From Dellaglioa kimchii (GTDB lineage: Bacteria; Bacillota; Bacilli; Lactobacillales; Lactobacillaceae): a DNA stretch of 24,000 nucleotides. Position numbers and translations under genes: made by a program. Below the pieces are notes generated by a model, which saw only the letters and a program-made list of their open reading frames with translations, searched no databases and was not told the origin of the DNA. Below are positions 9,758-23,614 of this stretch, piece by piece; position 1 is the stretch's first letter; each line of letters starts with the position of its first letter. The DNA lies in contig NZ_CP170737.1 of the NCBI RefSeq assembly GCF_046115505.1, positions 15,908 through 39,907 on the forward strand. Direction: 5' to 3'.

Positions 9758-9903
9758 TCTAACGAATCGACAGGCAAGCACCCTGATGCGCTATACTCTG
9801 CTGATTTAATGAACGCAGCTAAAGAAGAAGCTAAGCATCGAGGATTGTTTGACTTAAATAATCTATAACTGATTACCATATAACTAAATATCTAAAAAGA
9901 AAA

Positions 9904-9931
9904 ACGTCTTGAATATTCAAGGTGTTTTTTT
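9904..9931. terminator. bidirectional terminator hairpin
   Basis: ACGTCTTGAATATTCAAGGTGT (9904-9925) is flanked by an A-rich run on the left and T6 on the right. It lies directly 3' of the VIT gene stop (9934-9936, minus strand). Confidence 0.55.
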
Positions 9932-9933
9932 GT

Positions 9934-10419: not shown

Positions 10420-10532
10420 TTATTTTCTCCAGTTTCTCTCAGTGGTGATAAAACCAATATATAAGAAAAAAGTGACCAATTATCGGTAATTTCACATCGG
10501 ATTAAAAATGTTTCAAAAACGAAACAAATAAA

Positions 10533-11040: not shown

Positions 11041-11076
11041 TTAAAACGATATCCTTATTTTTAAGTATAAATCGAC

Positions 11077-11769: not shown

Positions 11770-11964
11770 ACCGTTTTCCTCCTAATTAATCGTTATCTAT
11801 AAATTGTCCATTTTTTAAGTATAAGATCATCTTTTTTCGTTGTATTTTATGTGGTTAATCTCACACCAGCTTGCCCCAGAGGATAGCGTTCTGCATGACA
11901 TGCTCTCACTGAAGGTGATCATACAATGATAAATTGCCATGTCACGGCGTGACCCATTGGTGCA

Positions 11965-12507
11965 ATGTATCATGTACCAAAACAAAAAACCACTAGGGTA
12001 TACAATATCGATACAGATTATGTAAATCAATTACATAGCATAGATAAAAAAGTAGAATACCACCATGGAGAACATGATAAACCGTATTTGGGTATCATAT
12101 TAGAAATTAACGGTACAAATTATTTTGTTCCTCTTTCATCACCAAAGCCGAAGCATAATCGAATGTCTGAAAATATCACTTTTAAAAAGATAGAAAAAGA
12201 TGGACACTTATTTGCTGTTTTAAATATTAACAATATGATCCCTGTTCCACTGAATTTATGTAAAGAAATTGACATTGATAATATTTCAGATACTTACTAC
12301 AAACACTTATTAAATCAGGAATACTTTATTTGCAAGCGAAAGAAAAGAGACATTATGAAGTCAGCCGGCATAGTTCATAAATGTATTTGTGAGGAGCCTG
12401 AAAGCCATGAAAAAATGTTGAGCCGAGAAAATAAGATTTATGAAGAAAGCAATTTTAATATTCTTTTTCGGTTGATTCTGATTCGAGTGATTATGGTCTT
12501 TATCTGA
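11965..12507 (+). CDS. ToxN/AbiQ-family type III toxin-like endoribonuclease; ends may not be native
   Basis: PYLGIILEINGTNYFVPLSSPKPKHNRM and VLNINNMIPVP match the AbiQ/ToxN core pattern (GI-LEI-G--Y-aPL-SPK-kH; MIP). There is no SD before ATG 11965. About 10 extra N-terminal residues are present. The last ~15-30 codons are antisense to a separate minus-strand gene start. Confidence 0.65.
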   Translation: MYHVPKQKTTRVYNIDTDYVNQLHSIDKKVEYHHGEHDKPYLGIILEINGTNYFVPLSSPKPKHNRMSENITFKKIEKDGHLFAVLNINNMIPVPLNLCKEIDIDNISDTYYKHLLNQEYFICKRKKRDIMKSAGIVHKCICEEPESHEKMLSRENKIYEESNFNILFRLILIRVIMVFI

Positions 12508-12516
12508 TTTTGACAT
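12361..12516 (-). pseudogene. 5' remnant of a metal-transporter gene (CDF/CzcD-like start) downstream of the ArsR-family gene
   Basis: A strong SD GGAGG (12524-12528 on the plus strand, as CCTCC) precedes ATG 12516. The product begins MSKSDKDHNHSNQNQPKKNIKIAFFINLIFS, a His/Asn-rich tail followed by a TM1-like segment. It then loses similarity and stops after 51 aa. It overlaps the toxN-like 3' end. Confidence 0.35.
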
Positions 12517-12557
12517 TTAAAAACCTCCTAAGTTTGTATGCTACATACTAATTGGTT

Positions 12558-12872
12558 TTATTTTTCTAATTCATTAACATGAGTTAAGACTCGTTCGAGA
12601 ATACTAAAAACATGAAGGTCATCTAAACTGTAAAGCATACTTTTTCCTTCTCTTCTTGATTTCACTAAGCGTGCGTCTTTCAACGTTTTTAATTGATGAG
12701 AAATAGCGGACTGTTCCATGTCCAGAGAAATAGCGATATTTCCAACACTACACTCTTTTTTCTGTAAAAGAAAGAGAACCGACAATCGTGTAGGATCACT
12801 AATCACCTTAAATAGTTTGCTTATTGACAGAATAGATCCTTTATCGATTGGAGAAGTTGTTTTTATATCCAT
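12558..12872 (-). CDS. ArsR/SmtB-family metalloregulator with an alpha5 (Zn/Co/Ni-type) site, 104 aa from ATG 12872
   Basis: The HTH reads DPTRLSVLFLLQKKECSVGNIAISLDMEQSAISHQLKTLKDARLV. The C-terminal DLH-x10-H-x2-E (DDLHVFSILERVLTHVNE) fits the alpha5 DxHx10Hx2E site of CzrA/SmtB-type sensors. There is no CVC alpha3 motif. The tracked ORF starts at TTG 12935, so the start is uncertain. Confidence 0.85.
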   Translation of the reverse strand: MDIKTTSPIDKGSILSISKLFKVISDPTRLSVLFLLQKKECSVGNIAISLDMEQSAISHQLKTLKDARLVKSRREGKSMLYSLDDLHVFSILERVLTHVNELEK

Positions 12873-12979
12873 AGTGTTTTTATTCCTTTCATATGACCTT
12901 TCGTTCATATCTATATTACCATATGAGCGAAACAATGCTAATCTTTTGTTTATAAAAGAGAAGTGGCGTTCTCTTTATC

Positions 12980-13042
12980 TTGACAAAATTTATATAGCGA
13001 TATAAAATGAGTATACAAACATATGATTAATTAGTCATATGT
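12980..13042 (+). promoter_or_regulatory. sigma70-type promoter (TTGACA-17-TAAAAT) followed by a 12-12 inverted-repeat operator
   Basis: TTGACA lies at 12980-12985 and TAAAAT at 13003-13008. The palindrome ACATATGATTAA|TTAGTCATATGT (13019-13042) matches at 11/12, which is ArsR/SmtB operator architecture. It lies between the divergent arsR-family and ATPase genes. Confidence 0.65.
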
Positions 13043-13170
13043 AAAGTGGATTCATTACGATTTACTTTTGGAATAAACGAAAGGAGTCAGAAATAGCAGA
13101 AATTTATGTGATTCAAGAAGTAAATGATGGAAAACAAAGGAATTATAAATTATATAGGGAGGCAATAGAA

Positions 13171-15102
13171 GTGAAAACTATCCAAGAACAACAGTCTCAA
13201 GAAAAGCATAATCATAATCACAACCACGATCACGACCATGATCATGGGAAAATGCCAGTCGTTTTGTACTTTGTTGGTTTAGCATTAGCAGTGATTGCTC
13301 TATTTTTGAATGAAGATTATCAGTTGGTACAAAATGTTTTGTTCTCAATCGCTACAATCAGTGCCGGGTATCACGTTATTCTTCTTGAAGGCCTTGGAGA
13401 AACAATTGAGAATTCAAAAGCACAAAAAAAGTTCATACCTAATTCTCATATTTTAATGGGATTAGCGGCAATTGGAGCTTCTTTGATGGGGAATTTTTGG
13501 GAAGGAACATTATTGATTCTTATTTTTTCTGGCGCACATTTTTTGGAAGATTATGCAGAAGGAAGAAGCAAACGAGAAATAACGAAATTACTCGAAATGA
13601 ATCCAACGACTGCCCGGTTAATCCTGCCTGATGGTAGTACAAAAAATGTGGATGTCAGTGAATTAAAAGTGGGAGATCAACTTCAAGTGTTGAATGGCGA
13701 TCAAGTACCTATTGATGGCGTCATTTTGTCTGGATCTACATCCATTGATGAGTCGTCTATTAATGGAGAAAGTATCCCGAAAGAGAAATCCAAAGGAGAT
13801 GGCGTCTTCGGGAGTACAATCAATGGAACAGGTACCTTCACGATGAAAGTCACCAAAGAAAACAAAGATACAGTATTTTCAAAAATTTTACAATTAGTGA
13901 ATCAGAACCAAGATAACCAAACAAAAGCTGCGAGTATTATCCAAAAATTTGAACCGAAATATGTCACAGTTGTTTTAATTGCCATTCCTCTATTCATGTT
14001 ATTGGCTCCTTTTCTACTTGATTGGACATGGTCACAAAGTGTCTATAGAGGATTGGTCCTTTTAGTTGCAGCTTCACCGTGTGCTTTAGCAGCAGCTACT
14101 GTCTCGGCAACGCTATCGACGACTTCTAATTTAGCCAAAAAAGGAGTCCTTTCAAAAGGTAGTTCTTACCTGTCTCAATTAGCCGATATTAAAGCAATTG
14201 CATTTGATAAGACGGGCACCTTGACCAAAGGAAAACCTGAAGTAACCAATTATTATTTTGCTGATTCCGTGAACGAAGAAAACATGATTGATATCGTAGT
14301 AGCTCTTGAAAAAGAATCCAATCACCCCTTAGCAGATGCTATTCTAAGAAAGTTTGAGCAAAAAAACAAACTAACTATTGAAGTAGAAAACCAAATTGGT
14401 AAAGGATTGACGGGAGATTACAAAGGGAGAAATTATCGTATAGGAAAACCGACTTCGTTTGATGATGTTTCAGATGAATATAGTCGTTTAAATAATGAAT
14501 GGGCATCAGAAGGTAAGACAGTCGTATACGTAGCAGTAGATGAAGAGGTTATAGGCCTTATTGCCCTTATGGACGTTCCGAGTGAATATGCTAAAGAAAC
14601 CATTGAATATTTTAGGAAACAAGGTATACACACCACATTAATTACTGGTGACTCAGAAATGACGGGAAAAGCGGTTGCTAAACAATTAGGAATAGATGAA
14701 GTGATTACGAATGTCATGCCGGAAGACAAATCCAGAATTATAGACGAACAAAAAGAAAAATACGGCGTGACCGCCATGGTTGGAGACGGTGTAAATGATG
14801 CTCCTGCTCTTGTTAATGCAGATGTGGGAATCGCTATGGGAGATGGGACTGATGTGGCAGTAGAGGTATCTGATTTAGTTTTAATGCAAAACAATTTATC
14901 TAAATTGGTACAATCTCATAATATTTCTTCGAAAATGAACCGTGTTATTTGGCAGAATATTATTTTTTCAATGGCCGTTGTTGCTTTTTTAATTGTCGTT
15001 AGTTTCTTAGGCTTAACGGATATTGCAATCAGTGTCATTATTCATGAAGGAAGTACTTTGGTTGTTATTTTGAATGGACTTCGATTGCTAAAGGCAGTCT
15101 AA
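13171..15102 (+). CDS. P1B-4-type (SPC motif) heavy-metal ATPase with a His-rich N-terminus, 643 aa from GTG 13171
   Basis: Motifs are the N-terminal HNHNHNHDHDHDHG, the TM motif AASPCALAAAT, FDKTGTLT, GDGVNDAPAL and HEGSTLVVILNGLRLL. The actuator loop reads SSINGESIP (NGE where TGE is usual). GTG 13171 has the SD GGGAGG 8 nt upstream. The tracked start at 13108 has no SD within range. Confidence 0.85.
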   Translation: MKTIQEQQSQEKHNHNHNHDHDHDHGKMPVVLYFVGLALAVIALFLNEDYQLVQNVLFSIATISAGYHVILLEGLGETIENSKAQKKFIPNSHILMGLAAIGASLMGNFWEGTLLILIFSGAHFLEDYAEGRSKREITKLLEMNPTTARLILPDGSTKNVDVSELKVGDQLQVLNGDQVPIDGVILSGSTSIDESSINGESIPKEKSKGDGVFGSTINGTGTFTMKVTKENKDTVFSKILQLVNQNQDNQTKAASIIQKFEPKYVTVVLIAIPLFMLLAPFLLDWTWSQSVYRGLVLLVAASPCALAAATVSATLSTTSNLAKKGVLSKGSSYLSQLADIKAIAFDKTGTLTKGKPEVTNYYFADSVNEENMIDIVVALEKESNHPLADAILRKFEQKNKLTIEVENQIGKGLTGDYKGRNYRIGKPTSFDDVSDEYSRLNNEWASEGKTVVYVAVDEEVIGLIALMDVPSEYAKETIEYFRKQGIHTTLITGDSEMTGKAVAKQLGIDEVITNVMPEDKSRIIDEQKEKYGVTAMVGDGVNDAPALVNADVGIAMGDGTDVAVEVSDLVLMQNNLSKLVQSHNISSKMNRVIWQNIIFSMAVVAFLIVVSFLGLTDIAISVIIHEGSTLVVILNGLRLLKAV

Positions 15103-15286
15103 AGAATGATTGCACAACTTCAAATTAATCGAGTAATAGAGATAATTAAGGATTACACTACATTTTTTATCTCTATTACTTGTTTATATTTATCTAGATG
15201 TTCAAAGTCAAAATGATATATCAACCATACTCTTGTGGCGCGGGTTGAATATAAGATACATGAAATTGTATAAAATCGTGTATCGA

Positions 15287-15314
15287 GAATCCTATATCTA
15301 TAGGGTTCTTTTTT
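15287..15314 (+). terminator. terminator-like hairpin
   Basis: GAATCCTATA-tc-TATAGGGTTC (one G-U pair) is followed by T6. It lies ~185 nt after the ATPase stop. Confidence 0.5.
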
Positions 15315-15330
15315 GATAACCCCCTCCAAT

Positions 15331-15364
15331 ACATGATTTCGTGGTATACTGAATGAAATCATGT
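15331..15364. promoter_or_regulatory. 10-14-10 inverted repeat ACATGATTTC...GAAATCATGT enclosing an extended -10 (TGGTATACT)
   Basis: Read directly from the sequence. TATACT lies at 15345-15350, preceded by TG. The repeat ends 31 nt before the recombinase start. Confidence 0.35.
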
Positions 15365-15394
15365 ATCGTTTTTTTGAGAGGAGAGCCATTTTCA

Positions 15395-15946
15395 ATGACG
15401 TATAACGTCCAACCATTAAGAACGCAGCAAGAAATCAACGACTTTTTATTTTGTTTAAGGCGCAATAAAAACGCCGAACGCGACGTTTTTCTGTTTTTGA
15501 TCGGCATTAATAGCGGTTTACGCATGTCTGATATCGTGAAATTAAAGAAAAAAGACGTGATTTCCTCGAAAAACCCACGTATTGTGGAGCAAAAAACCGG
15601 AAAAACACGCATTTTATATTTAAGCAGCCTGCAGGAGTTGATCCAGGACTACACGAAAGACCTGAAGCCAGAAGATTATTTGTTTCCCAGTACTAAAGGC
15701 GGTCATTTAGAAGTCAATACGGTCTATCAGATGTTTCAAAAGGTCGCCGCATTATTAGATCGGGACGATATCGGCACGCACACGCTGCGCAAGACCTTTG
15801 GTTACCATTACTACAAGAAAACCAAAGACGTGGCCACACTCATGGAAATCTTCGGTCACAGCAGTGAAAAAATCACGAAGCGCTATATCGGGATTAATGA
15901 AGACGAAATTAGCGAGACGTTATTAAATTTTAGACTCGGTTTTTAA
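15395..15946 (+). CDS. small tyrosine recombinase (catalytic domain only), 183 aa, paralogous in type to 8533-9123
   Basis: Signature residues are in GLRMSDI (Arg), GTHTLRKTFGY (HxxR), FGHSS (His) and ITKRYIG (Tyr). ATG 15395 is preceded by GAGAGGAGAG. The tracked start at 15353 lacks an SD. Confidence 0.85.
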   Translation: MTYNVQPLRTQQEINDFLFCLRRNKNAERDVFLFLIGINSGLRMSDIVKLKKKDVISSKNPRIVEQKTGKTRILYLSSLQELIQDYTKDLKPEDYLFPSTKGGHLEVNTVYQMFQKVAALLDRDDIGTHTLRKTFGYHYYKKTKDVATLMEIFGHSSEKITKRYIGINEDEISETLLNFRLGF

Positions 15947-15973
15947 ATCTATATTAATTAAGGAGAAAGTGTA

Positions 15974-16165
15974 ATGAAAAAAATGAGTGCATATGTAAAA
16001 AATATAATTCTTACTCATCCGGTATTATCAATTATTATTCTTTTAGTTATTCCAATTTTTGTGTACTTAATCGCTCTTGTTATTGGATTGAAGTCAATAT
16101 TTGAGACAGATTTTAAGAGACATTCAGAACCGCGTTTACCTTCCACAGCTCAAATAAATCATTAA
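15974..16165 (+). pseudogene. N-terminal fragment of a small membrane-protein gene interrupted by the IS3-family element
   Basis: A good SD AAGGAG is present and there is one clear TM segment (PVLSIIILLVIPIFVYLIALVIGL). From 16102 onward the reading frame runs inside the IS terminal repeat, so the last ~21 codons are IS-derived. Confidence 0.4.
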
Positions 16166-16205
16166 TCGCGATTAATAACTTATTTGAACCCTGGAAAGCA
16201 TTAAA

Positions 16206-17135
16206 TCAGGCGGCCATTTGGCTCGTAAGTGTTGCAATTTCAACTTGTAAGGGGGTCTGGTAGCCCAGTGAACTATGAATTCTCTTCCTATTGTAGAAAG
16301 CATGCACATATTCAAAAAGGACGGCAGCAGCAGTTTCATAATCTTCAAAGACCGGCACTGGATAAACACATTCCTTTTTGAGGGAAGCGTGAAAGGATTC
16401 CATTGGCGCATTATCATACGGACAACCCTTACGGCTGTATGAGTGGCGGATATGTAGCTCAGTTAAACGTTGATTGTAATCATCGCTGGTATACTGTGAT
16501 CCTAAATCCGTATGGATAATCAGGTCCCCAGTAATGGTTCGATTTTTAACCGCGCTTTCAAGGGTCTTTAAGACTAAATCAGTATCCATCTTTTTTGAGA
16601 ACGAATAACCGATAATCCGTCGTGAGTGCAGGTCCATGATGGTTGATAAGTAACACCAGCCATTACGCTTCGTTTGAATATAGGTCATATCAGCGGTCCA
16701 TTTTTGATTTAAACCAGTGGTCGAGAAATCCTGCTTAAGCAAGTTGGGACGCTGTTCAACCTTGGTTTTGGAAGCCGAAGCCGCTTTCCACTTATTGACG
16801 GTAACGGAGTGGATATCCAGTTCCTTCATGAGCCGGGAAATCCGTCGTGGACTGCACCGAAGCTGCAGTGGTTGAAGTTCCAGATTCAATTCATGGTGGA
16901 TCTTCATAACACCGTATCGCTGCTTAAATTCCGCAAAGATCCGCAGAATCCGTTGTTTCAAGTCCGCATCTTCGGCCCGGCGTTTTGAAGGTTTGGGGGA
17001 TCGATAACGATAATACTGAGCTCTGGAAACACCGAGGATTCGGCACATCTTGGTTACCTGGTGGTGATGGCTTTCTTGGTGAATGTAATCAAAGATATTG
17101 GTTACTTCTGCGCAAGGAAGCCCAGGGCTTTTTTT
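16206..17135 (-). CDS. IS3-family transposase OrfB (DDE integrase-like domain), expressed as an OrfAB fusion by -1 frameshifting
   Basis: WTADMTYIQT..., HTDLGSQYTS and NAPMESFHASLKKE carry the D, D and E motif contexts of IS3 transposases. The frame is open from the slippery site (KKSPGLPCAEVTNIFDYIHQESHHHQVTKMCRILGVSRAQYY). The first ATG is at 17048. Confidence 0.85.
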   Translation of the reverse strand, partial: KKSPGLPCAEVTNIFDYIHQESHHHQVTKMCRILGVSRAQYYRYRSPKPSKRRAEDADLKQRILRIFAEFKQRYGVMKIHHELNLELQPLQLRCSPRRISRLMKELDIHSVTVNKWKAASASKTKVEQRPNLLKQDFSTTGLNQKWTADMTYIQTKRNGWCYLSTIMDLHSRRIIGYSFSKKMDTDLVLKTLESAVKNRTITGDLIIHTDLGSQYTSDDYNQRLTELHIRHSYSRKGCPYDNAPMESFHASLKKECVYPVPVFEDYETAAAVLFEYVHAFYNRKRIHSSLGYQTPLQVEIATLTSQMAA

Positions 17136-17353
17136 AGGATTTCGTTCTCCTCAGACAGCGAAGCCAGTCGCTTTTCCATCGCTTTGATTTCGTCTGGCGA
17201 TTTACCGGATTGAGTTTTGGCCTGGCCCTGGATCCACTTATGAACTGTTGAATAGCCAATGCCATATTCTCTGGCCAGTTGAGCAGCTGATTCGCCTTGC
17301 TTATATAGGTTGATAATGTTTTGTTTGAATTCTTTGTCGTAACGAGTTGGCAT
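17102..17353 (-). CDS. IS3-family transposase OrfA (HTH), 83 aa
   Basis: The product reads MPTRYDKEFKQNIINLYKQGESAAQLAREYGIGYSTVHKWI, followed by a leucine-zipper-like tail LASLSEENEILKKALGF. The gene ends just after the A7 site. Confidence 0.85.
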   Translation of the reverse strand: MPTRYDKEFKQNIINLYKQGESAAQLAREYGIGYSTVHKWIQGQAKTQSGKSPDEIKAMEKRLASLSEENEILKKALGFLAQK

Positions 17354-17444
17354 GTAAAAATTCCTTCCTTTTGAGAGACGATTTATTCATTATACCCTCT
17401 CTTAAAAGTTGTCTCAGGAATCAGCTTACATCCACCTTAAAAAA

Positions 17445-17484
17445 TTGATTTTTAGTACAAATTAAAGTACAATATTAAGTACAA
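17445..17484 (+). promoter_or_regulatory. promoter (TTGATT-17-TACAAT) overlapped by three 12-bp-phased AGTACAA repeats, a likely antitoxin operator
   Basis: TTGATT lies at 17445-17450 and TACAAT at 17468-17473. AGTACAA occurs at 17454, 17466 and 17478. GTAC-core repeats are the type of operator described for YefM/Axe-class antitoxins. Confidence 0.55.
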
Positions 17485-17500
17485 TGAAAGGGTGGTAAAT

Positions 17501-17779
17501 ATGACATTAGCACTAACACAGAGCGATTTTCGCGCTAACCTAAAAAAATATTTAGATCAAGTTAATGACGAAGACGAAACCGTTTATATTGCTCGTTCAA
17601 ATAGTCGCGCAGTAGCAATCGTTTCACAAGAAAAAATGGACTGGCTAGAACGAGCATTAAAAGCTAAAGAAGGTTCGTTAGAATATGCAATTGCACGTGA
17701 TCAGTTAATTAAACGCCATGTTTTACCTGACGATGAAATTGTTGAATCAGATGATGATTATTGGGGTCAGTTTAAATAA
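17501..17779 (+). CDS. Phd/YefM-family antitoxin, 92 aa
   Basis: It reads MTLALTQSDFRANLKKYLDQVNDEDETVYIARSNSRAVAIVSQEKMDWLE and has an acidic C-terminus (VESDDDYW). ATG 17501 has the SD AAAGGGTGG. The stop overlaps the toxin start (TAATG). Confidence 0.8.
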   Translation: MTLALTQSDFRANLKKYLDQVNDEDETVYIARSNSRAVAIVSQEKMDWLERALKAKEGSLEYAIARDQLIKRHVLPDDEIVESDDDYWGQFK

Positions 17780-18135
17780 TGAAAAAACTAAGGTTTAAAC
17801 CACGTGCAACCTTTAATGCTGATCTAAAACGGTTAGCCAGTTTAGATAAATCTATTATTGATGAAGTTCGAGCAGCCATTGACCTGTTGCTTGAGCAACA
17901 ACAATTACCATCAGAATTTGAAGATCATGAGCTTAATCGGCGAATGAGCGGTTATAATGAATTTCACTTACGAGATACCCCGAAAAACAAAACACCAAGC
18001 GAAACTAACGATGTCCTGGTGGTTTATACGATTGATACAGATGAACTAGTCTTAATTGGCATTCGAGTCGGATCGCATGATCGTTTATTTCCTGGTCAAA
18101 ATCGTTCCAAAAGGTATCGAAAAAATGACGAATAA
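17779..18135 (+). CDS. YafQ/RelE-family mRNA interferase toxin, 118 aa
   Basis: The pattern FNADLKRL...LPSEFEDHELNRRMSGYNEFHL...VLVVYTIDTDELVLIGIRVGSHDRLF matches the YafQ-type pattern (DH-L-G---G--E-H; R-GSH--LF). An extra loop (RDTPKNKTPSETND) is present. Confidence 0.75.
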   Translation: MKKLRFKPRATFNADLKRLASLDKSIIDEVRAAIDLLLEQQQLPSEFEDHELNRRMSGYNEFHLRDTPKNKTPSETNDVLVVYTIDTDELVLIGIRVGSHDRLFPGQNRSKRYRKNDE

Positions 18136-18143: not shown

Positions 18144-18247
18144 ATTTATAACATATAAAAACAAATAACCCCCAATATCTACATTATAGATATTGGGGGC
18201 TATTCTTTCAATGTTTTCGAGGGGCGATTTATCACAAATAGACCCTC
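18144..18247 (+). repeat. copy B of the ~105-bp imperfect inverted repeat; includes a bidirectional terminator hairpin (18169-18199)
   Basis: It aligns with the reverse complement of 7731-7836. The hairpin is CCCCCAATATCT-7 nt-AGATATTGGGGG, followed by TTTTCGAGGGG and a second GAGGG...CCCTC hairpin. It lies between the convergent YafQ-like and reductase genes. Confidence 0.7.
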
Positions 18248-18253: not shown

Positions 18254-19585
18254 TTAAATTAATGTTCTAATTTTATATGCTAAACCAGGGAAAGCCATTA
18301 CCATCTTTTCTTTCCAAACCTCTGGATCAACATCAATTGCCATAACAGGAATTAGTGAATTGATATCATCTACTGCTGTTTGGCTAATTTCAGCAGCGCC
18401 CACGAGATGATTTTGCTTGTCAAAGACTAATGATAATCGTGCGTGATCATCTGTTCCAGCATAAAAAAAGTCACCTTGAGTAATATCAATATCTTTAATT
18501 GAATAATTACTGTCTTCCTTTGCTTTATCAATACTAATTCCAGCTTGAGCGAGTTGGGGGAATGTGAACGTAACGGTTCCAATTACTGGGTACCTAAGAG
18601 GTTCAGTTGTTTTATTAGTAAGTAAGGCACTTAAGTAGTCTGCTTCAAACTGTGCCGTAGAGGTTAATGCTGGTGCGGTTTTATCAACAATATCGCCCAT
18701 TGCGTAAATGTTATTTGCTGATGTGGTCAAATATTTATCAACTTTAATTCCGCGGTTGCTGTACTCTACACCAGCATTATCAAGTTTCAATGCATTAATT
18801 TCAGGAACTCTACCACTGGCATTAATAACTTTATCAAAAGTGCCAAGGTTGCCGTTAGCTGATTGAACCTCATAGCCAGTTTGTGCTTCGGTAACAGCTG
18901 TAACATTTGTGTTAAATATAAAATTAATACCAAGTGAGTTTTTCATTTCATCAACTAACTGATGAACGTGTTGGCTGTAAAATCCCTCTAGTGGTTGGCC
19001 GGATCGGACAATAACTGTTACTTTAACCCCGGCAGCAGACAACAATGTAGCAAATTCCATACCAACGTAACCACTTCCGATAATTGCGACGTTCTTTGGA
19101 GTATCTTCGAGTTCAAAAAGGTTAGTACTAGTAAGTAGGTACTCGTGGCCAGGAATGTTAAGAGGATGCGGCTTTTTTCCGGTTGCGATTACAAAATTAT
19201 CAGCAGTGATTTTTTTATTATTAACTTCAATGGTATGTTGATCAACAAATGATGCTTCACCCTTGATGGTAGTCGCACCCAGGCCTTCATACATACTTTG
19301 CATATTATTTAGGAATGACGCCATAGCCTTATTCTTTTGCTGAATAAGTTCTTTCCAGTCAAGCTTAGCTGGTTGAGTAATTCCCTTACCTTGCAAACGC
19401 ATTGAAGTTAAGGTTGCTCGTGCTGCTCCTTCTAAGAAAATCTTGGGTTCGCAGCCTTCGTTAGGGCAAATTCCGCCAAACCGATTCTTTTCAACAACCG
19501 CGATTTTCTTTCCGCTATTCTGCATTCCCAATAGGAAACGATAAACTGATGGCCCACTGCCAATAACAACGTAGTCAAACTTCAT
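18254..19585 (-). CDS. class I pyridine-nucleotide-disulfide oxidoreductase, glutathione-reductase-like, 443 aa
   Basis: The FAD fold is DYVVIGSGPS. The redox-active CxxxxC is GGICPNEGCEPK. The NAD(P)H fold is VAIIGSGYVGMEF. The C-terminal region reads VMAFPGLAYKI where GR and LipDH have the HP---E dyad, so the His-Glu pair appears to be missing. Confidence 0.8.
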   Translation of the reverse strand: MKFDYVVIGSGPSVYRFLLGMQNSGKKIAVVEKNRFGGICPNEGCEPKIFLEGAARATLTSMRLQGKGITQPAKLDWKELIQQKNKAMASFLNNMQSMYEGLGATTIKGEASFVDQHTIEVNNKKITADNFVIATGKKPHPLNIPGHEYLLTSTNLFELEDTPKNVAIIGSGYVGMEFATLLSAAGVKVTVIVRSGQPLEGFYSQHVHQLVDEMKNSLGINFIFNTNVTAVTEAQTGYEVQSANGNLGTFDKVINASGRVPEINALKLDNAGVEYSNRGIKVDKYLTTSANNIYAMGDIVDKTAPALTSTAQFEADYLSALLTNKTTEPLRYPVIGTVTFTFPQLAQAGISIDKAKEDSNYSIKDIDITQGDFFYAGTDDHARLSLVFDKQNHLVGAAEISQTAVDDINSLIPVMAIDVDPEVWKEKMVMAFPGLAYKIRTLI

Positions 19586-19602
19586 TTATAGCTTCCCTCC
19601 AT

Positions 19603-19734
19603 TTATTTTGTTTTCTTCTTCTTATCCTCAGTTTGCTTTTGATGTTCAGAGATATTACAACCGTCTGGCCCACATACAGCAGCATCATTATTATCGCCAA
19701 ATATTGTATTAAATTGTGGCTTATCTTCGGTCAT
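19603..19734 (-). CDS. small 43-aa Cys-pair protein absent from the ORF track (MTEDKPQFNTIFGDNNDAAVCGPDGCNISEHQKQTEDKKKKTK)
   Basis: A strong SD TAGGAGGAA lies 6 nt before ATG 19734. The gene fills the 161-nt gap between the DsbA-like and reductase genes on the same strand. It carries a CGPDGC motif and a Lys-rich tail. Confidence 0.5.
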   Translation of the reverse strand: MTEDKPQFNTIFGDNNDAAVCGPDGCNISEHQKQTEDKKKKTK

Positions 19735-19746
19735 CGTAAATTCCTC

Positions 19747-20394
19747 CTAATTTTCTTCTTCTTGAACTCGCTTTAAGGCTTTAACAAAAACTTCATATGG
19801 TTGGGCACCACTAATTGCATACTTATTATTGATTACAAAAAAAGGTGCAGCATGAATACCGGATTGTTGAGCCTCTGCCTCGTCATTGACCACAGCTTGA
19901 TGATATTGGTTAGAATTAAGCACTTTTTCTACTTCGTCTTTAGCAAGCCCAGCTTCCATTGCCGCATTTAATAGCACATCATGGTCAGAAATCGATTGAC
20001 CATCACTAAAGTAAACTTGGTAGAAGCGTCTAATTACTCGTTCAGTCAAATCAGGATCATTTTTAGCTTCTGCGAATTTAATAATCCGGTGCGCATCCAT
20101 AGTATTTGTAGGTACTACACTGTCAAGATCCATTGGTAGACCATCGTTATGCGCCATTTGTTCGATGTAAGCCATTTGCTTTTTGGCCTGTGGCTCCATT
20201 GCCTTATTTCCCTGAGTGAAGTGATTAATGTATCCTTCATCGGTTTCCTTTGGTGTTGCAGGGTTAAGCTCGAATGATTTGAACTCTAATTCAGTTGTGT
20301 CATAAATACCAATTTCCTTCATTGCTCGTTTCATTCGGTTAGAACCGATATAACAAAAGGGGCAAGCAATGTCTGACCAATATTTGATTTCCAT
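19747..20394 (-). CDS. DsbA-family thiol oxidoreductase, FrnE-like subgroup (cytoplasmic), 215 aa
   Basis: The N-terminal active site is WSDIACPFCYIG. The C-terminal region GIHAAPFFVINNKYAISGAQPYEVF is typical of FrnE/DsbA-like proteins. No signal peptide is present. Confidence 0.85.
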   Translation of the reverse strand: MEIKYWSDIACPFCYIGSNRMKRAMKEIGIYDTTELEFKSFELNPATPKETDEGYINHFTQGNKAMEPQAKKQMAYIEQMAHNDGLPMDLDSVVPTNTMDAHRIIKFAEAKNDPDLTERVIRRFYQVYFSDGQSISDHDVLLNAAMEAGLAKDEVEKVLNSNQYHQAVVNDEAEAQQSGIHAAPFFVINNKYAISGAQPYEVFVKALKRVQEEEN

Positions 20395-20412
20395 AAAGTA
20401 ATTTTCCTCTCT

Positions 20413-21357
20413 TTAATCTTTAACCGTTTGCCGATGCTTTATGGCTTCGAAATATTCAAAGGCGTTTTGCCCAGCAATACCACCATCGCCAACCGCAGTG
20501 GTAATTTGCCGCAGTTGCTTTTGCCGGACATCACCAATTGCATAGATTCCAGGAATTGTTGTTTCCATTTGATCGTTAGTTATAATCCAACCAGCTTGAT
20601 CGGTAATATTTAAATTATTGAAAATTTGGCTATTTGGAAAGTTACCGACATAAACGAAAACTCCATCAGTGTCTAGAGTTGTATCATCACCGACCTGATT
20701 GTTATGAATTTTTACTCCAGTAACATGATTTTCATCACCTAAAATCTCTGTCACACTAGTATTCCAAGTGAAATCTATCTTATCGTTATCAAAAGCACGA
20801 TTTTGTAATACCTTTTGTGCCCGTAACTGATCGCGACGATGAATGACATTAACTCCATCAGTGACATTAGCTAAGTACAATCCTTCAGAAATTGCTGAAT
20901 CACCACCGCCAACTACAGTAACATTCTTTCCTTTAAAGAAAGAACCATCACATACTGCACAGTAAGAAACCCCTTTTCCGGAGAACTTTTCTTCACCTGG
21001 TACACCTAATTTTCGATTATTAGATCCTGTTGCAATAATTACTGCGCTTGCTACTAACTCGTCACTATCGGTTTGAATATGCTTCATTTGTTGATCATCA
21101 ACGGTAACGTTTTGGACATCACCATATACAAAATTTACTCCGGCCTTAACGGTTCCTTGATACATTTTCTCACCAAGTTCAGGACCCTTAATTGTTGTAA
21201 AACCAGGGTAGTTTTCAATGTCATCGGTGTTGTTCATTTGTCCACCATAAATACCGCGATCAAGCATTGCTACATTTAAATTAGCTCGTGCTGCATATAA
21301 GGCAGCGGTCATTCCACCAGGACCGGCCCCAATCACTACTACATCATATTTCCTCAT
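20413..21357 (-). CDS. trxB: thioredoxin-disulfide reductase, 314 aa
   Basis: It has VVVIGAGPGGMTAALYAAR (FAD), the redox centre SYCAVCDGSFF (CAVC), VVGGGDSAISEG (NADPH) and GIYAIGDV. Confidence 0.9.
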   Translation of the reverse strand: MRKYDVVVIGAGPGGMTAALYAARANLNVAMLDRGIYGGQMNNTDDIENYPGFTTIKGPELGEKMYQGTVKAGVNFVYGDVQNVTVDDQQMKHIQTDSDELVASAVIIATGSNNRKLGVPGEEKFSGKGVSYCAVCDGSFFKGKNVTVVGGGDSAISEGLYLANVTDGVNVIHRRDQLRAQKVLQNRAFDNDKIDFTWNTSVTEILGDENHVTGVKIHNNQVGDDTTLDTDGVFVYVGNFPNSQIFNNLNITDQAGWIITNDQMETTIPGIYAIGDVRQKQLRQITTAVGDGGIAGQNAFEYFEAIKHRQTVKD

Positions 21358-21380
21358 TAAATTTCAATCCAATCTACTTA

Positions 21381-21576
21381 TTAGTCGTCACGTAACGCTA
21401 ATCCCTTATCCAATGAACGATTAACAATGACTTCTTGTGCATCAATAATGGTTAACCACTATATAATCTAAATGGTCTTGGTCTTTATGGGTTTCAGTTT
21501 TCTTATTAAGGAGTCGGACATAACTTTCAGTTGCTAACGTCCCCATACCGCCAAGAATAGTTAAAAAACTCTTCAT
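21381..21576 (-). pseudogene. aspartate/glutamate-racemase-family remnant (N-terminal 44 codons plus a short out-of-frame C-terminal piece)
   Basis: It reads MKSFLTILGGMGTLATESYVRLLNKKTETHKDQDHLDYIVVNHY*, with the racemase motif GGMG--AT, then an internal deletion. Its ATG overlaps the preceding stop (TAATG). Confidence 0.55.
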
Positions 21577-21898
21577 TAGTTAATAGTGTTGGTAATGAAG
21601 TTTTCGACTTCTTCTTTAGTCTTCCGATCTTTATTGACAAGCCTTCCGATTTCTTGCCCATCTCTAAAAATAACGAAGCTTGGAATACCAAAGATATTTA
21701 GTTCTTGAGCCAATTCGGTATTCTCATCACGATCGACACTGATGAAAGTGTAATCTTTGAATTCTTGTTCAATTTCTGGTAGATGAGGCTTGATAAAGCT
21801 ACAATCAGGGCACCAAGAAGCTATAAAAATTAAAATATATTTTCCATTCTTCAGTTTTTTATCAAATTCTTTTTATTCATTACTGATAGTTGTTCCAT
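21576..21898 (-). pseudogene. thioredoxin-family gene (WCPDC active site) with a frameshift in a homopolymer
   Basis: The SD GAGGGGAG and ATG 21898 give MEQLSVMNKK. After a run of 5 A (plus strand T5, 21870-21874) the frame must shift to read EFDKKLKNGKYILIFIASWCPDCSFIKPHLPEIEQEF...GIPSFVIFRDGQEIGRL...*. The span is 323 nt, one less than a multiple of 3. The ORF track misses it because the long frame has no start codon. Confidence 0.65.
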
Positions 21899-21918
21899 TT
21901 AGCTTCTCCCCTCTTAAC

Positions 21919-22233
21919 CTAATTAGTATATTGAGCAAGAACGGTTTTAAGTTGGTCCTTACTGTGGAGGCCAACCAGCTTATCAACTACTTGGCCATCT
22001 TTTTTGATAATTAAGGTTGGAATAGACATAATTCCAAATGCCATTGGTGTTTTTTGATTTGCATCTACGTCCATTTTAGTGATTTTGACTTTATCGCCAA
22101 TTTCTTTATCAAGTTGTTCAATAATCGGTCCTTGCATTCGACATGGAGGACACCAAGTAGCCCAAAAATCAGTTAATGTAACACCGGTACTAGTTTCTTT
22201 CACAAAGTCTTTGTCAGTTAAGTTCTTAACCAT
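21919..22233 (-). CDS. trxA: thioredoxin, 104 aa, WCPPC active site
   Basis: It reads VTLTDFWATWCPPCRMQGPIIEQL...MSIPTLIIKKDGQVVDKLVG, with canonical Trx length and cis-Pro context, but CPPC instead of CGPC. An SD AAAGGAG lies upstream. Confidence 0.85.
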   Translation of the reverse strand: MVKNLTDKDFVKETSTGVTLTDFWATWCPPCRMQGPIIEQLDKEIGDKVKITKMDVDANQKTPMAFGIMSIPTLIIKKDGQVVDKLVGLHSKDQLKTVLAQYTN

Positions 22234-22246
22234 AAGAGTCGCTCCT

Positions 22247-22528
22247 TTATAGGTAATATTTAATTAAAGTTGTTAATTGTGATTGATCAATAAAACGGGT
22301 AATTTTTTCAACGATTTTTCCATCACGCAGCAAAATAGTACTGGGTGCGGAATAAACATTGTATTTTTTTGCTAGTTCTGGGTGAGCATCTGAATTCACT
22401 ACCCGAACGTTTAAATATGAATTAAAGTCATGGCTAATCTTATTTATTATTGGTCGCTGCGTATAACACTGGGCGCACCAATTATTCTCAAAATTAATTA
22501 AGGTTAGCGTTTTATCAATAGTAGACAA
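22247..22528 (-). CDS. thioredoxin-like protein, 93 aa, WCAQC motif
   Basis: It reads LINFENNWCAQCYTQRPIINKI...YSAPSTILLRDGKIVEKI, a Trx fold pattern. The start is TTG with a weak SD (AAAGG). Confidence 0.65.
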   Translation of the reverse strand: MSTIDKTLTLINFENNWCAQCYTQRPIINKISHDFNSYLNVRVVNSDAHPELAKKYNVYSAPSTILLRDGKIVEKITRFIDQSQLTTLIKYYL

Positions 22529-22546
22529 GTTATGTCACTGCCTTTC

Positions 22547-22574
22547 AATTATTCAATTGTTTACTTGAATAGTT
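22547..22574. promoter_or_regulatory. 10-8-10 inverted repeat AATTATTCAA-ttgtttac-TTGAATAGTT in the leader of the thioredoxin operon
   Basis: The arms match at 9/10. The half-site TTGAATAGTT recurs in the palindrome upstream of the ArsR-rhodanese gene. Confidence 0.3.
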
Positions 22575-22610
22575 CAATAATATCATATACTTTTTGTAAG
22601 TCAATATAAA

Positions 22611-22645
22611 AGCACGATTTAATCAATAAATGACTAAATCGTGCT
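22611..22645 (-). terminator. terminator-like hairpin after the ArsR-rhodanese gene
   Basis: AGCACGATTTA-13 nt-TAAATCGTGCT forms an 11-bp stem. On the minus strand it is followed by TTTTATATT. Confidence 0.5.
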
Positions 22646-22653
22646 TAAACTGT

Positions 22654-23298
22654 TTATTCTGTTATTTTATTCCAATCATAGTGACTTGAATTTAAACTAA
22701 CTGCGTCAAAACCATTTCTATTTAAGATCTGTGTGGCAATGTTGGAATTAGCACATAGTCTTCCGCGGCAATAAACAATAATCTTTTGATCTTTAGGTAA
22801 TTTGGGCATTGATTCTTTTAATGTTTCCAATGGGACATTAATTGCCGATTGTATGTGGCCTGCTGCATATTCATCAGAAGGTCGTACATCAAGGACAAAG
22901 CTATTTTCGTATTCTTCTTGAGCTTGCTTTAAGGAAATGGTTTTAACGTTATCTTGAGCGTCTGATTTATCCTGAATTGTTTTCATATCTGAAAGTTCAC
23001 TGTTGCCAATATCGGTTAATAGGTGCACAAGATCACTAATTTTGGGAGAACTAAGGCTATAAATAATATGATTGCCTTTTCGTTTTGTTTTAACCAGATG
23101 ACTGTCCTTCAATATTTGTAGATGGCGTGAGGCGTTAGCTACACTTATTCCGACCCCGTTGGCAATAGTTTCAACTGATTTGGGTGCTTGAGTTAAAAGA
23201 TCAAGAATTTCTAATCGTCGATCACTGCTTAGCCCCTTACCAATTTTAGATAGTTCTTTATATAGTCCATTTTTGTAGTTAACTGCTTGTTCAAACAT
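22654..23298 (-). CDS. ArsR-family HTH fused to a C-terminal rhodanese domain, 214 aa
   Basis: The N-terminal half is DRRLEILDLLTQAPKSVETIANGVGISVANASRHLQILKDSHLV (ArsR HTH). The C-terminal half is FVLDVRPSDEYAAGHIQSAINVP...IIVYCRGRLCANS (rhodanese active-site loop CRGRLC). Confidence 0.8.
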   Translation of the reverse strand: MFEQAVNYKNGLYKELSKIGKGLSSDRRLEILDLLTQAPKSVETIANGVGISVANASRHLQILKDSHLVKTKRKGNHIIYSLSSPKISDLVHLLTDIGNSELSDMKTIQDKSDAQDNVKTISLKQAQEEYENSFVLDVRPSDEYAAGHIQSAINVPLETLKESMPKLPKDQKIIVYCRGRLCANSNIATQILNRNGFDAVSLNSSHYDWNKITE

Positions 23299-23313
23299 TT
23301 TCTTTTCACCTTT

Positions 23314-23337
23314 TCAACTATTTTGTTGAATAGTTTA
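23314..23337. promoter_or_regulatory. inverted repeat TCAACTATT-ttgttg-AATAGTTTA just upstream of the ArsR-rhodanese start
   Basis: The arms match at 8/9. It lies 16-39 nt upstream of ATG 23298 and shares the AATAGTT half-site with 22565-22574. Confidence 0.3.
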
Positions 23338-23614
23338 CCAGTTTTCCTATGAAATTGAAATTCAATATTATTAGTTAATAAATTAATGGGCCTTGTCTCT
23401 TTAGATTTAGGAGTCATCCTGTAATATTGCCCCTAAATGAGTCTATCTCCCAATGCTTTTGATAGAAGCTCCTATAATCAAAACTAGATTATCGTGACTT
23501 CAGAGCCATTTATTCAGATTTAATTTTGATTTTTAAACGTCTGGAGTTATAAAAAATACTGATACCACAATGACTTTACTATCTTGTTTGACACATACTT
23601 CATTATTTTAATAG

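Follow-up and report, generated by a model that had tools for sequence, protein, structure and literature searches.

A locus of Dellaglioa kimchii raises the question of what a thiol-redox gene cluster headed by an ArsR-rhodanese fusion does for its host and how its expression is controlled. The window analysed here comprises 24,000 nt of contig NZ_CP170737.1 (assembly GCF_046115505.1; positions 15,908-39,907, forward strand), and all coordinates below are window positions. A sequence-only reading had listed nine items in this cluster, and all of their open reading frames and cysteine motifs were found on the minus strand where it had placed them (Table 1). The domains of the listed proteins were borne out by Pfam and NCBIfam profile searches. 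The gene order from the regulator is as follows: ArsR-rhodanese fusion, thioredoxin (Trx) with WCAQC, TrxA with WCPPC, Trx with WCPDC, racemase remnant, TrxB, FrnE-like protein, 43-aa peptide, and a flavoprotein resembling glutathione reductase (GR). We propose that this cluster is probably a horizontally mobile, self-regulated, inducible auxiliary cytoplasmic disulfide-reducing system of lactic acid bacteria.

Table 1. Features of the cluster, in order from the regulator promoter region to the operon end.
Feature	Position	Strand	Basis
Candidate operator O1, TTCAA-N8-TTGAA core, between regulator promoter and start codon	23312..23331	-	one-mismatch match to ATTCAA-N8-TTGAAT
ArsR/SmtB winged-helix repressor with C-terminal rhodanese domain	22654..23298	-	Pfam HTH_5, HTH_20, Rhodanese
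Intrinsic-terminator-like hairpin directly 3' of regulator gene	22610..22646	-	16-bp stem and T-run
trx operon promoter, TTGACT, 16 nt, TG-n-TATTAT	22577..22604	-	10/12 consensus match, extended -10
Candidate operator O2, exact ATTCAA-N8-TTGAAT, few nt downstream of trx promoter -10	22551..22570	-	palindrome match
Trx-fold protein, 93 aa, WCAQC, first operon gene	22247..22528	-	Pfam Thioredoxin, 48.7 bits
TrxA, 104 aa, WCPPC	21919..22233	-	TIGR01068, 108.9 bits, cut-off 96.8 (equivalog passed)
Third Trx-fold gene, WCPDC, frameshifted	21576..21898	-	alignment to intact 324-nt copies
Asp/Glu racemase 5'-end remnant (44-aa N-terminal part), fixed scar inside module	21442..21576	-	weak Pfam Asp_Glu_race match
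TrxB, low-Mr thioredoxin reductase, 314 aa, CAVC	20413..21357	-	TIGR01292, 366 bits, cut-off 343 (equivalog passed)
FrnE-subfamily DsbA-like core, 215 aa, CPFC at residues 11-14, lacking the C-terminal tail	19747..20394	-	matches to drFrnE and SCO1869
43-aa peptide, C-G-P-D-G-C-x-I-x-x-H	19603..19734	-	separate gene; AGGAGG 8 nt before ATG
Class I flavoprotein disulfide reductase, CPNEGC-E-P-K, last gene, accessory	18254..19585	-	profile searches, alignment
Bidirectional terminator hairpin, operon end	18163..18205	.	20-pair stem and T-run

Transcription units, candidate operators and regulator

The intergenic gaps are 12-20 nt with two exceptions of 125 nt and 218 nt. The 125-nt gap, 3' of the regulator gene, contains a terminator and a promoter, and the 218-nt gap 5' of trxB is the racemase scar. 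The cluster is organized as two transcription units, the regulator alone followed by an operon that runs from the first trx gene to the reductase gene, and the same palindrome lies beside each promoter. Candidate operators O1 and O2 share a 32-nt repeat (D3). Two palindrome sites per 24 kb were obtained in 11 of 100 shuffles of the window and O1 carries one mismatch, so that support for the operator comes from conservation across lineages and not from the window alone. In L. reuteri, L. plantarum type 2, and Priestia, and in a C. kimchiensis-like locus, the regulator gene is likewise preceded by the palindrome. It is found at both promoters in four lineages (the window, L. reuteri, L. plantarum type 2, and the C. 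kimchiensis-like locus), and none of 200 shuffles of the C. kimchiensis-like locus gave two sites. O2 occupies the same place in loci L003, L005, and L014, and the -35, spacer, and -10 of the trx promoter are kept in three lineages. In L. reuteri and L. plantarum type 2 a hairpin of different sequence stands at the same position after the regulator gene, whereas promoter and operator are conserved. The regulator would bind to this palindrome.

The regulator scores above the cut-off of NCBIfam NF033788 (68 versus 55 bits), and its two-domain AF2 model is confident (pLDDT 90, pTM 0.82). The only cysteines of the protein are C177 and C182, which lie in the rhodanese loop Y-C-R-G-R-L-C (C-x4-C). 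Both are invariant among 19 regulator homologues, down to 39% identity, and no other cysteine is conserved. In the alignment of these homologues the HTH (ArsR) domain has no cysteine, and no conserved metal-ligand residues were found.

Conservation, mobility and gene products

Of 76 plasmid records, 74, from six genera of lactic acid bacteria, carry the cluster core at 99% identity or more, and the full region is covered to at least 80% in 66 records (megablast). The conserved module ends at about the operon terminator; in many plasmids the megablast match begins at 18146-18164 and stops at 23434-23438. Diverged copies, in which the regulator is 50-66% identical, retain the gene set but arrange it in four orders; Trx, TrxB, FrnE with the peptide, and TrxA are kept, and the GR-like gene is present in some copies and absent from others. 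TrxA is present in all four architectures. The WCAQC thioredoxin directly follows the regulator in three of them, the C. kimchiensis-like one being the exception, and the GR-like gene is likewise found in three, the L. reuteri version lacking it. The cluster is a horizontally mobile conserved unit on plasmids of food lactic acid bacteria, and the fused regulator travels with it, in agreement with the initial view of a mobile unit with its own sensor.

The initial reading was wrong in supposing that the set had not been characterized as a unit. Davray et al. 2020 drew arsR-trxA-trxB-frnE-gshR as an oxidative stress resistance cluster on 17 plasmids (PMC8190607). One of these, CP033892.1 (Fig. 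7b in PMC8190607), is 99.8% identical to the window over the cluster and 100% over the core. A further plasmid, pCAUH203 (CP015129.2), is 99.7% identical and was reportedly linked to oxidative stress tolerance (Zhai et al. 2019). The literature on such near-identical plasmids connects the cluster with tolerance of peroxide/oxidative stress.

All three thioredoxin active sites (WCPPC, WCAQC, and WCPDC) are non-canonical, and the WCAQC protein falls below the TIGR01068 cut-off (57 versus 97). The third gene is broken by the loss of one A from a run of six at 21870-21874. An intact gene is found in three other plasmids, among them CP033892.1, the closest copy, and therefore the frameshift is private to this copy, either a mutation or a homopolymer sequencing error. 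The racemase remnant matches the N-terminal part of Pfam Asp_Glu_race below the cut-off (E = 0.0011) and is the same in two other plasmids save one substitution.

The FrnE-like protein aligns with Deinococcus radiodurans FrnE (drFrnE, PDB 5cnw) over residues 14-222 of 260 (E = 9e-35) and with SCO1869 (PDB 3gl5; E = 6e-29), and no leader peptide was found in its sequence. In diverged clusters the 43-aa peptide gene is invariably 3' of the frnE gene and its motif is invariant. The best PDB match of the peptide profile is the C-terminal tail of SCO1869, and 79 of 101 long FrnE relatives have a fused CX4C tail, with CGPDGC the commonest form. From these comparisons the peptide is the CX4C tail of FrnE-type DsbA proteins, detached and encoded by a gene of its own, and this split is conserved in four Lactobacillaceae lineages. 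drFrnE (DR_0659) is a cytoplasmic DsbA-family disulfide reductase/isomerase in which the CX4C tail has a role in thioredoxin reductase-dependent regeneration; it was proposed that this motif regenerates the active site with electrons from thioredoxin reductase (PMC8945050).

The last gene product is not an ordinary glutathione reductase, as had been suspected from its C-terminus. It falls below every curated GR, MerA, and RclA cut-off in NCBIfam. Additionally, the C-terminal His-Glu dyad is missing: F-P-G-L-A-Y-K stands in place of the H-P-T-x-x-E of GR, with Phe replacing the GR His. The enzyme is a member of an unnamed family without the His-Glu pair. Its best solved relative is GbsMerA from Gelidibacter salicanalis (PDB 8k40; E = 2e-62, residues 2-439). 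With its split FrnE and its non-GR flavoreductase, the cluster goes beyond a duplicate housekeeping Trx system, as the sequence-only reading had held.

Proposed function and alternatives

How the regulator senses stress and how electrons are transferred are both inferred, as follows. An ArsR-rhodanese dimer on ATTCAA-N8-TTGAAT would repress both units, and oxidation or S-modification of C177-x4-C182 would release the repressor. Electrons would pass from NADPH to TrxB and from there to the three thioredoxins; by way of the free 43-aa CX4C peptide they would also reach the FrnE-type oxidoreductase, which may reduce or isomerize wrongly oxidized cytoplasmic protein thiols. The second flavoenzyme, which lacks the acid-base His-Glu pair and is genetically linked to the WCPPC thioredoxin, would act as an accessory reductase that depends on NAD(P)H. 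With the thiols back in the reduced state, the sensor would in turn be re-reduced by the induced Trx system, and the operon would be turned off. Observations that count against this explanation include the break in one of the three trx genes here and the dispensability of the GR-like gene in the L. reuteri version.

A possible but unlikely alternative is that the cluster is an island for tolerance of thiosulfinates (allicin), a Gram-positive equivalent of the alt/TTG clusters found in bacteria of onion and garlic. In that case S-thioallylation would be sensed by the rhodanese cysteines, the relay would strip allyl-mercapto adducts, and garlic in vegetable fermentations would have driven the spread. 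This proposal concerns the selective agent and is compatible with a disulfide-reducing system. The gene content resembles the Pseudomonas PfAR-1 islands and the Pantoea OVRA region, which carry dsbA/frnE-like, trx, glutathione reductase, and osmC genes on mobile DNA, and insertions in PfAR-1 dsbA and trx led to higher allicin sensitivity (PMC7119367). A MarR gene and two OsmC genes come directly after the cluster in L. plantarum type 2, and many carriers come from kimchi, with one source given as 'garlic, cabbage'. However, kimchi origin (33 of 60 listed cluster plasmids versus 13 of 30 control-integrase plasmids from the same genera) is indistinguishable from database bias, and further sources of carriers are silage, milk, humans, and an insect. 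The cluster lacks AhpD and OYE, which are the strongest determinants in PfAR-1, as well as a TetR regulator, and a literature search gave no paper tying allicin to these plasmids. The garlic link is attractive but unsupported.

It is still less probable that the cluster senses and detoxifies reactive sulfur species (persulfides or polysulfides). The catalytic cysteine of the rhodanese domain is intact in the Pfam match, the closest structures are rhodanese domains of persulfide and CoA-persulfide reductases, and a persulfide could be converted to a bridge by the second cysteine, four residues further along. Yet this domain is carried by the regulator and not by an enzyme, and sulfide:quinone oxidoreductase, persulfide dioxygenase, CoA-persulfide reductase, and sulfite exporter were found in none of the four architectures. 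The analogy to BigR/SqrR that had been drawn at the outset fails on the defining feature, the cysteine pair of the ArsR domain, because the regulator has no cysteine there; with the BigR NCBIfam model it scores 40 bits, the cut-off being 155.

A metal or metalloid defence accessory, supplying reductant to a thioredoxin-coupled ArsC of the same plasmid or reducing metal ions through the GR-like enzyme as reported for GbsMerA, is very improbable. The metal and arsenic genes noted earlier are indeed present elsewhere in the window (an LMW-PTPase-type ArsC at 7189-7605 and two P-type ATPases), but this neighbourhood is not conserved in other plasmids and is incidental: the neighbours vary (Dps, helicase/methylase, PTS, IS elements) and the metal module circulates separately from the cluster. 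drFrnE is cadmium-inducible and its mutant is cadmium-sensitive (PMC8945050), and GbsMerA comes from a mer operon. Against this, the regulator lacks conserved metal ligands, and NmerA and the C-terminal Cys pair are missing from the GR-like protein, which has Phe at the position of GbsMerA Tyr437 and reaches 204 bits against the MerA cut-off of 454. Neither of the earlier candidates, sulfane sulfur and ArsC supply, gained specific support.

A chance juxtaposition of redundant housekeeping paralogues without common control has practically no standing: the hosts carry chromosomal trxA and trxB, one Trx is broken here, and the racemase scar records a past rearrangement, but the reading is contradicted by synteny, the gene set being kept in four rearranged architectures with frnE and the peptide gene invariably adjacent, and by the shared operator at both promoters.

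Comparison with known systems

The cluster of Davray et al. is the same DNA as that in the window, but the published account consists of gene names only; the operator and the small peptide are unmentioned, the word rhodanese does not occur in that description, and the last gene is named glutathione reductase (PMC8190607), which the family cut-offs and the missing dyad do not support. New here are the regulator CX4C as the only conserved cysteines, the palindrome found in four lineages beside both promoters, the identification of the 43-aa peptide as a detached FrnE tail, the GR-like family without His-Glu, and the private frameshift in the third Trx. The sensor, the split enzyme tail, and the second reductase are variants of known parts.

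The PfAR-1, OVRA, and alt clusters are also mobile multi-gene thiol-redox sets with dsbA/frnE-like, trx, and GR-type reductase genes and osmC nearby. They differ in that they belong to Gram-negative bacteria, are under TetR control, are based on GSH, and have AhpD and OYE as key components, none of which applies to the window cluster. GbsMerA, a short MerA/RclA-like enzyme, resembles the GR-like protein in lacking both NmerA and the C-terminal Cys pair, in the acidic residue directly after CX4C, and in having an aromatic residue where GR has its His (Tyr437 there, Phe here). In contrast to the GbsMerA gene, the window gene lies outside any mer operon, with thioredoxins under a putative thiol-sensing regulator. 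Deinococcus FrnE has a homologous core and, close to its N-terminus, a CP[WF]C site, but its CX4C is a covalent tail, whereas that of the window is encoded by its own gene.

Among regulators, RexT of Anabaena PCC 7120, an ArsR-family redox sensor of trxA2, is the analogy cited by Davray et al. (PMC8190607). The BigR/SqrR repressors resemble the window regulator in their ArsR fold and, on the model proposed here, in sensing by thiols and not by metals, but both of their sensing cysteines are missing here and sulfide-oxidation genes are absent from the regulon. RexT is likewise an ArsR-family repressor of a thioredoxin gene and senses through cysteines inside the ArsR fold, whereas the window regulator has no cysteine in that fold, its invariant CX4C lying in the fused rhodanese domain.

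Gene content, spread and published record

The minus-strand cluster consists of a gene for an ArsR-rhodanese regulator followed by an operon that runs from trx genes to a gene for a GR-like flavoprotein. All of the genes and cysteine motifs that the sequence-only reading had listed for 18254-23298 are present as described and their domains were confirmed with Pfam and NCBIfam; its observations stand, and its interpretation is partly supported. TrxB passes the TIGR01292 equivalog model (366 bits, cut-off 343), with CAVC as the CxxC redox centre of the NADPH domain. The 104-aa TrxA passes TIGR01068 (108.9 bits, cut-off 96.8) and the 93-aa Trx-fold protein falls below it (57.3 bits vs 96.8). As had been pointed out, the canonical WCGPC occurs in none of the three Trx-fold genes, which carry WCPPC, WCAQC and WCPDC instead. 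The third is frameshifted by the loss of one A from a run of six. Alignment shows it unbroken in three other plasmids, including the closest copy (CP033892.1), so the break is either private to the window copy or a homopolymer sequencing error. The racemase remnant differs from other copies by one substitution and is otherwise base-identical, and is thus an old scar that has become fixed within the module.

Features of the window and of related loci (window coordinates unless another locus is named)
Feature	Positions	Strand	Motif or remark
ArsR-HTH::rhodanese	22654-23298	minus	YCRGRLC
Trx-fold, 93 aa	22247-22528	minus	WCAQC
TrxA, 104 aa	21919-22233	minus	WCPPC
Third Trx-fold gene	21576-21898	minus	WCPDC; frameshifted in the window
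Racemase remnant, 44 aa	21442-21576	minus	without Cys motif
TrxB	20413-21357	minus	CAVC
Leaderless DsbA/FrnE-like protein	19747-20394	minus	CPFC
43-aa peptide	19603-19734	minus	CGPDGC
GR-like flavoprotein, 443 aa	18254-19585	minus	CPNEGC
Candidate operator, regulator side	23312-23331		one mismatch
Candidate operator, trx operon side	22551-22570		exact
Fur/Dyp module	3665-6346		
LMW-PTPase-type ArsC	7189-7605		
ToxN-family toxin gene	11965-12507		Pfam E = 2e-40
12-nt tandem repeat	17454-17485		2.7 copies
L. plantarum type 2 regulator (L005/L006/L007)	8001-8705		called as 234 aa
MarR and two OsmC genes, L. plantarum type 2 (L005-L007)	13459-14907		
End of the C. kimchiensis-like cluster (L014)	6360-6961		FCRDAEKC replaces CxxC
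Dps gene of a plasmid carrier (L001)	11101-11568	opposite to regulator gene	

The cluster is a conserved mobile unit. At least 80% of the 5.4-kb region is covered in 66 plasmid records, and the core (peptide, FrnE, TrxB) was found in 76, at an identity of at least 99% in 74 of them; these near-identical cores occur in Leuconostoc, Lactiplantibacillus, Weissella, Levilactobacillus, Latilactobacillus and Pediococcus. Plasmid matches typically start at 18146-18164 and end at 23434-23438, the flanks vary between plasmids, and no transposon-like terminal repeats were found around the module. The rest of the window is a mosaic of separately circulating modules. These include P-type ATPases, a Fur-family gene with a Dyp peroxidase, an LMW-PTPase-type ArsC, a VIT protein, Crp/Fnr, ToxN, an IS3 element and a Phd/YafQ pair. 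Of window positions 1-18100, at most 53% is covered by any one PLSDB record, and an Rfam scan of the window returned zero matches. The metal and arsenic neighbourhood noted earlier is indeed present, but it is incidental to the cluster because the modules move separately.

Several of these neighbouring features were also annotated. The Fur-family regulator gene overlaps the start of the Dyp-type peroxidase gene and is followed by a FAD/NAD-binding ferric-reductase-like gene, forming a second peroxide- or iron-related module that is shared with a Leuconostoc suionicum plasmid. ArsC has no adjacent arsR, arsB or arsA, and in a related plasmid it is annotated as thioredoxin-dependent arsenate reductase. 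In the stretch 11750-11990, upstream of the ToxN-family type III toxin gene, neither ToxI-like tandem repeats nor an Rfam match was detectable, and ToxN is either an orphan toxin or paired with an unusual antitoxin. The 12-nt repeat, AGTACAATATTA, directly precedes the Phd-family antitoxin gene (17492) and is probably the operator of the Phd toxin-antitoxin pair.

Zhai et al. 2019 is cited for reportedly tying pCAUH203, a near-identical published plasmid, to oxidative stress tolerance. A study by Davray et al. determined that 17 plasmids, among them CP033892.1 and pCAUH203, have trxA, trxB, gshR and frnE in one and the same order, with arsR lying upstream of them, and proposed a role in oxidative stress (Davray et al. 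2020, PMC8190607); the rhodanese domain is never mentioned there. Both the set as a unit and its general role have thus been published before, although the sequence-only reading knew of no such characterisation. What the literature searched does not describe is the type of regulator, its candidate operator, the splitting-off of the FrnE tail and the finding that the last gene does not encode a GR. The cluster has thus been catalogued before, and several of its features are unstudied variants. Few cargo modules are shared as widely among food-fermentation plasmids, and probiotic studies already take the cluster as a marker for "antioxidant" strains.

The regulator family has 546 matches at E <= 1e-10, most of them in Lactobacillaceae and the next largest group in Bacillaceae. 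The synteny search that had been proposed showed that the gene set is retained in diverged copies with its order rearranged. Across four architectures (the window type and those of L. reuteri, L. plantarum type 2 and Companilactobacillus kimchiensis-like loci) the regulon never lacks the WCPPC TrxA or a flavoprotein reductase, of which there is at least one, the FrnE and small peptide genes are always neighbours, and the presence of the GR-like gene and of the third Trx varies.

Diverged loci carrying the ArsR-rhodanese regulator
Locus	Regulator identity	Gene order
L. reuteri (IS-flanked)	62%	ArsR-Rhod, Trx, TrxB, FrnE, 48-aa peptide, TrxA, Trx
L. plantarum type 2 (also chromosomal)	65-66%	ArsR-Rhod, Trx, TrxB, FrnE, 44-aa peptide, TrxA, GR-like, then MarR and two OsmC
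Companilactobacillus kimchiensis-like		ArsR-Rhod, TrxA, GR-like, degenerate Trx
Priestia	40%	ArsR-Rhod with MFS transporter alone

The minimal C. kimchiensis-like cluster closes with a degenerate Trx-fold protein, and its end also holds a 96-aa protein that has no Pfam match. With the divergent MarR gene and the two genes for OsmC-family peroxiredoxins that follow it, the L. plantarum type 2 cluster forms a larger stress island; OsmC is also found in Gram-negative thiosulfinate-tolerance clusters. In some plasmids a Dps gene lies just upstream of the regulator gene. It also appears in the gene list given for pCAUH203 and is absent from the window.

The ArsR-rhodanese regulator and its candidate operator

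The regulator contains an ArsR-type winged helix-turn-helix (Pfam HTH_5 and HTH_20; NF033788, 68 bits, cut-off 55) as well as a rhodanese (putative sulfurtransferase) domain (PF00581, 60.8 bits, cut-off 22.2). In the confident AF2 model (pLDDT 90, pTM 0.82) a linker helix joins a full winged-helix domain to a compact rhodanese domain, and the HTH domain superposes on CzrA at 0.9-1.1 A. No solved structure with this two-domain architecture was found by sequence or fold search. C177, which is invariant, occupies the catalytic-Cys position at the start of the six-residue rhodanese loop. Together with C182 in the loop Y-C-[RK]-G-x-x-C it forms the only conserved cysteines among 19 homologues down to 39% identity. 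The metal-sensing ligands of the family (alpha3N Cys or alpha5 His/Asp/Glu) were not found: Cys is absent from residues 1-110, the one His that is invariant belongs to the recognition helix, and no ligand cluster is conserved in alpha5. The likeness to BigR/SqrR that had been suggested did not hold up. BigR and SqrR have two conserved ArsR-fold cysteines that form a di- or tetrasulfide, whereas the ArsR domain here has none and so fails the defining feature of that group; the score against NF040642 is 40 bits, with a cut-off of 155. ArsR-fold cysteines are also the defining sensing feature of RexT, and the window regulator is without them.

Directly after the regulator gene there is a hairpin with a 16-bp stem and a T-run, followed by a strong predicted promoter of the trx operon (TTGACT, 16 nt, TG-n-TATTAT). 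A 32-nt element with the palindrome ATTCAA-N8-TTGAAT as its core occurs both in this promoter region and upstream of the regulator gene. In the window alone the case for the palindrome is weak, as two sites occurred in 11 of 100 shuffles, and its strength comes from other lineages. In L. reuteri and L. plantarum type 2 the exact palindrome lies at each of the two promoters, as it does at both promoters of the C. kimchiensis-like locus, where two sites occurred in 0/200 shuffles. In Priestia it lies upstream of the regulator gene. Alignments between lineages show that the -35, the spacer, the -10 and the palindrome are kept. The hairpin was ruled out as the operator since its sequence is not conserved across lineages; hairpins at this place are always present with a T-run but diverge in sequence, which identifies them as terminators. 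The public L. plantarum type 2 regulator call encloses the conserved candidate operator (8011-8030). By homology the gene starts with the ATG at 8043 (220 aa), and the annotated start is thus probably too far upstream.

From these patterns we infer two transcription units that would be controlled by one autoregulated repressor at the candidate operator. Oxidation or S-modification of the loop pair C177/C182 would release the repressor, and the induced Trx system would then re-reduce the regulator and close a feedback loop. If the rhodanese-loop pair is the sensor, this would be a new input mechanism for the ArsR family, and one that would also hold for the hundreds of homologues encoded on the chromosomes of Lactobacillaceae and Bacillaceae.

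FrnE, the 43-aa peptide and the GR-like flavoenzyme

The FrnE-like protein (PF01323, 133.7 bits) has CPFC at residues 11-14, no leader, and matches to drFrnE (E = 9e-35) and SCO1869 (E = 6e-29). It stops at the end of the FrnE core, and the C-terminal CX4C tail, a feature of many members but not all, is absent from the polypeptide itself and found on the next ORF. The gene for this 43-aa peptide has an AGGAGG ribosome-binding site, and C-G-P-x-G-C-x-I-x-x-H is invariant among its homologues despite an overall identity of 41-42%. When a peptide profile was compared with 177,635 PDB sequences, the best match was the last 18 residues of SCO1869 (tail DDGGAEACGPDGCAVPGH, peptide DNNDAAVCGPDGCNISEH). 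Among the 150 closest representative FrnE-like proteins (101 long, 49 short), the tail was present in 79/101 long forms vs 2/49 short forms; CGPDGC was the commonest motif (24 proteins) and 31 matched CGPxGC. In Deinococcus radiodurans FrnE, which has CX4C on its own tail rather than on a separate ORF, 239-CXXXXC-244 docks onto the CXXC motif of an adjacent molecule and supports TrxR-dependent turnover (PMC8945050). The motif, the SCO1869 match, the census and the D. radiodurans protein together identify the 43-aa peptide as the FrnE tail, carried by a gene of its own. This detached tail provides a natural two-piece system for probing the recycling of FrnE-type cytoplasmic disulfide reductases.

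The last gene has been published as gshR, a name that is not warranted, and since it is not a glutathione reductase the cluster annotation is partly wrong. The protein scores below all NCBIfam cut-offs for glutathione reductase (NF004776, 273 bits vs 480; TIGR01421/01424, 222/237 vs 556/606), lipoamide dehydrogenase, MerA, mycothione reductase, RclA and HOSCN reductase, as do its relatives from L. reuteri, L. plantarum type 2 and Priestia, and most GR alignments to it end near residue 360. The N-terminal site GG-I-C-P-N-E-G-C, with CxxxxC next to FAD as in glutathione reductase, belongs to an invariant family motif GG-x-C-x-N-x-G-C-E-P-K. The sequence-only reading was right that the His-Glu dyad is missing: the family C-terminus is [FY]-P-x-[LI]-x-x-K, vs H-P-T-x-x-E in glutathione reductase, and the family has no conserved C-terminal His. 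MerA was rejected as an identity (TIGR02053, 204 bits vs 454; neither an N-terminal NmerA extension nor a C-terminal Cys pair), as were RclA/HOSCN reductase (NF040477, 153 vs 740; NF041853, 145 vs 650 bits), also for the L. reuteri relative. The only solved relative that aligns over the full length is GbsMerA (8k40, E = 2e-62), a short MerA/RclA-like enzyme that lacks both an NmerA domain and a C-terminal Cys pair and has Asp after its CX4C and Tyr where the window protein has Phe. The GR-like gene lies directly 3' of the WCPPC TrxA in two architectures, and a Clostridium relative is near TrxB and Trx genes; the distantly related chromosomal copies of L. reuteri and Priestia are solitary, and their context is uninformative.

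Alternative functions and comparison with thiosulfinate-tolerance clusters

It can be hypothesized, in a form open to experiment, that the cluster confers tolerance to thiosulfinates such as allicin. Its gene content is akin to that of the mobile clusters for allicin/thiosulfinate tolerance in Pseudomonas and Pantoea, and many carriers were isolated from kimchi, but the kimchi/garlic enrichment (33/60 cluster plasmids vs 13/30 control-gene plasmids) is not distinguishable from sampling bias. The AhpD-like, OYE/NemA and TetR repressor genes of the alt/TTG-like clusters occur in none of the four architectures, and no link of allicin or thiosulfinates to LAB plasmids was found in the literature searched. 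In an alternative reading the cluster handles reactive sulfur species; no architecture contains sulfide-oxidation genes. A metal or arsenic function is countered by the variable neighbours and the missing metal ligands of the regulator.

A wider picture would combine a new thiol-switch repressor class (ArsR-rhodanese, loop C-x4-C), a mobile reductase regulon that resets itself, a free 43-aa CX4C micropeptide that shuttles electrons to FrnE, a His-less flavoenzyme paired with the WCPPC thioredoxin, and a recent spread in vegetable-fermentation bacteria selected by Allium thiosulfinates, which would make the cluster a Gram-positive alt/TTG analogue. We regard it as improbable that this picture holds in full. 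The alt/TTG-like thiosulfinate clusters have only dsbA/frnE, trx and a GR-type gene in common with the four architectures.
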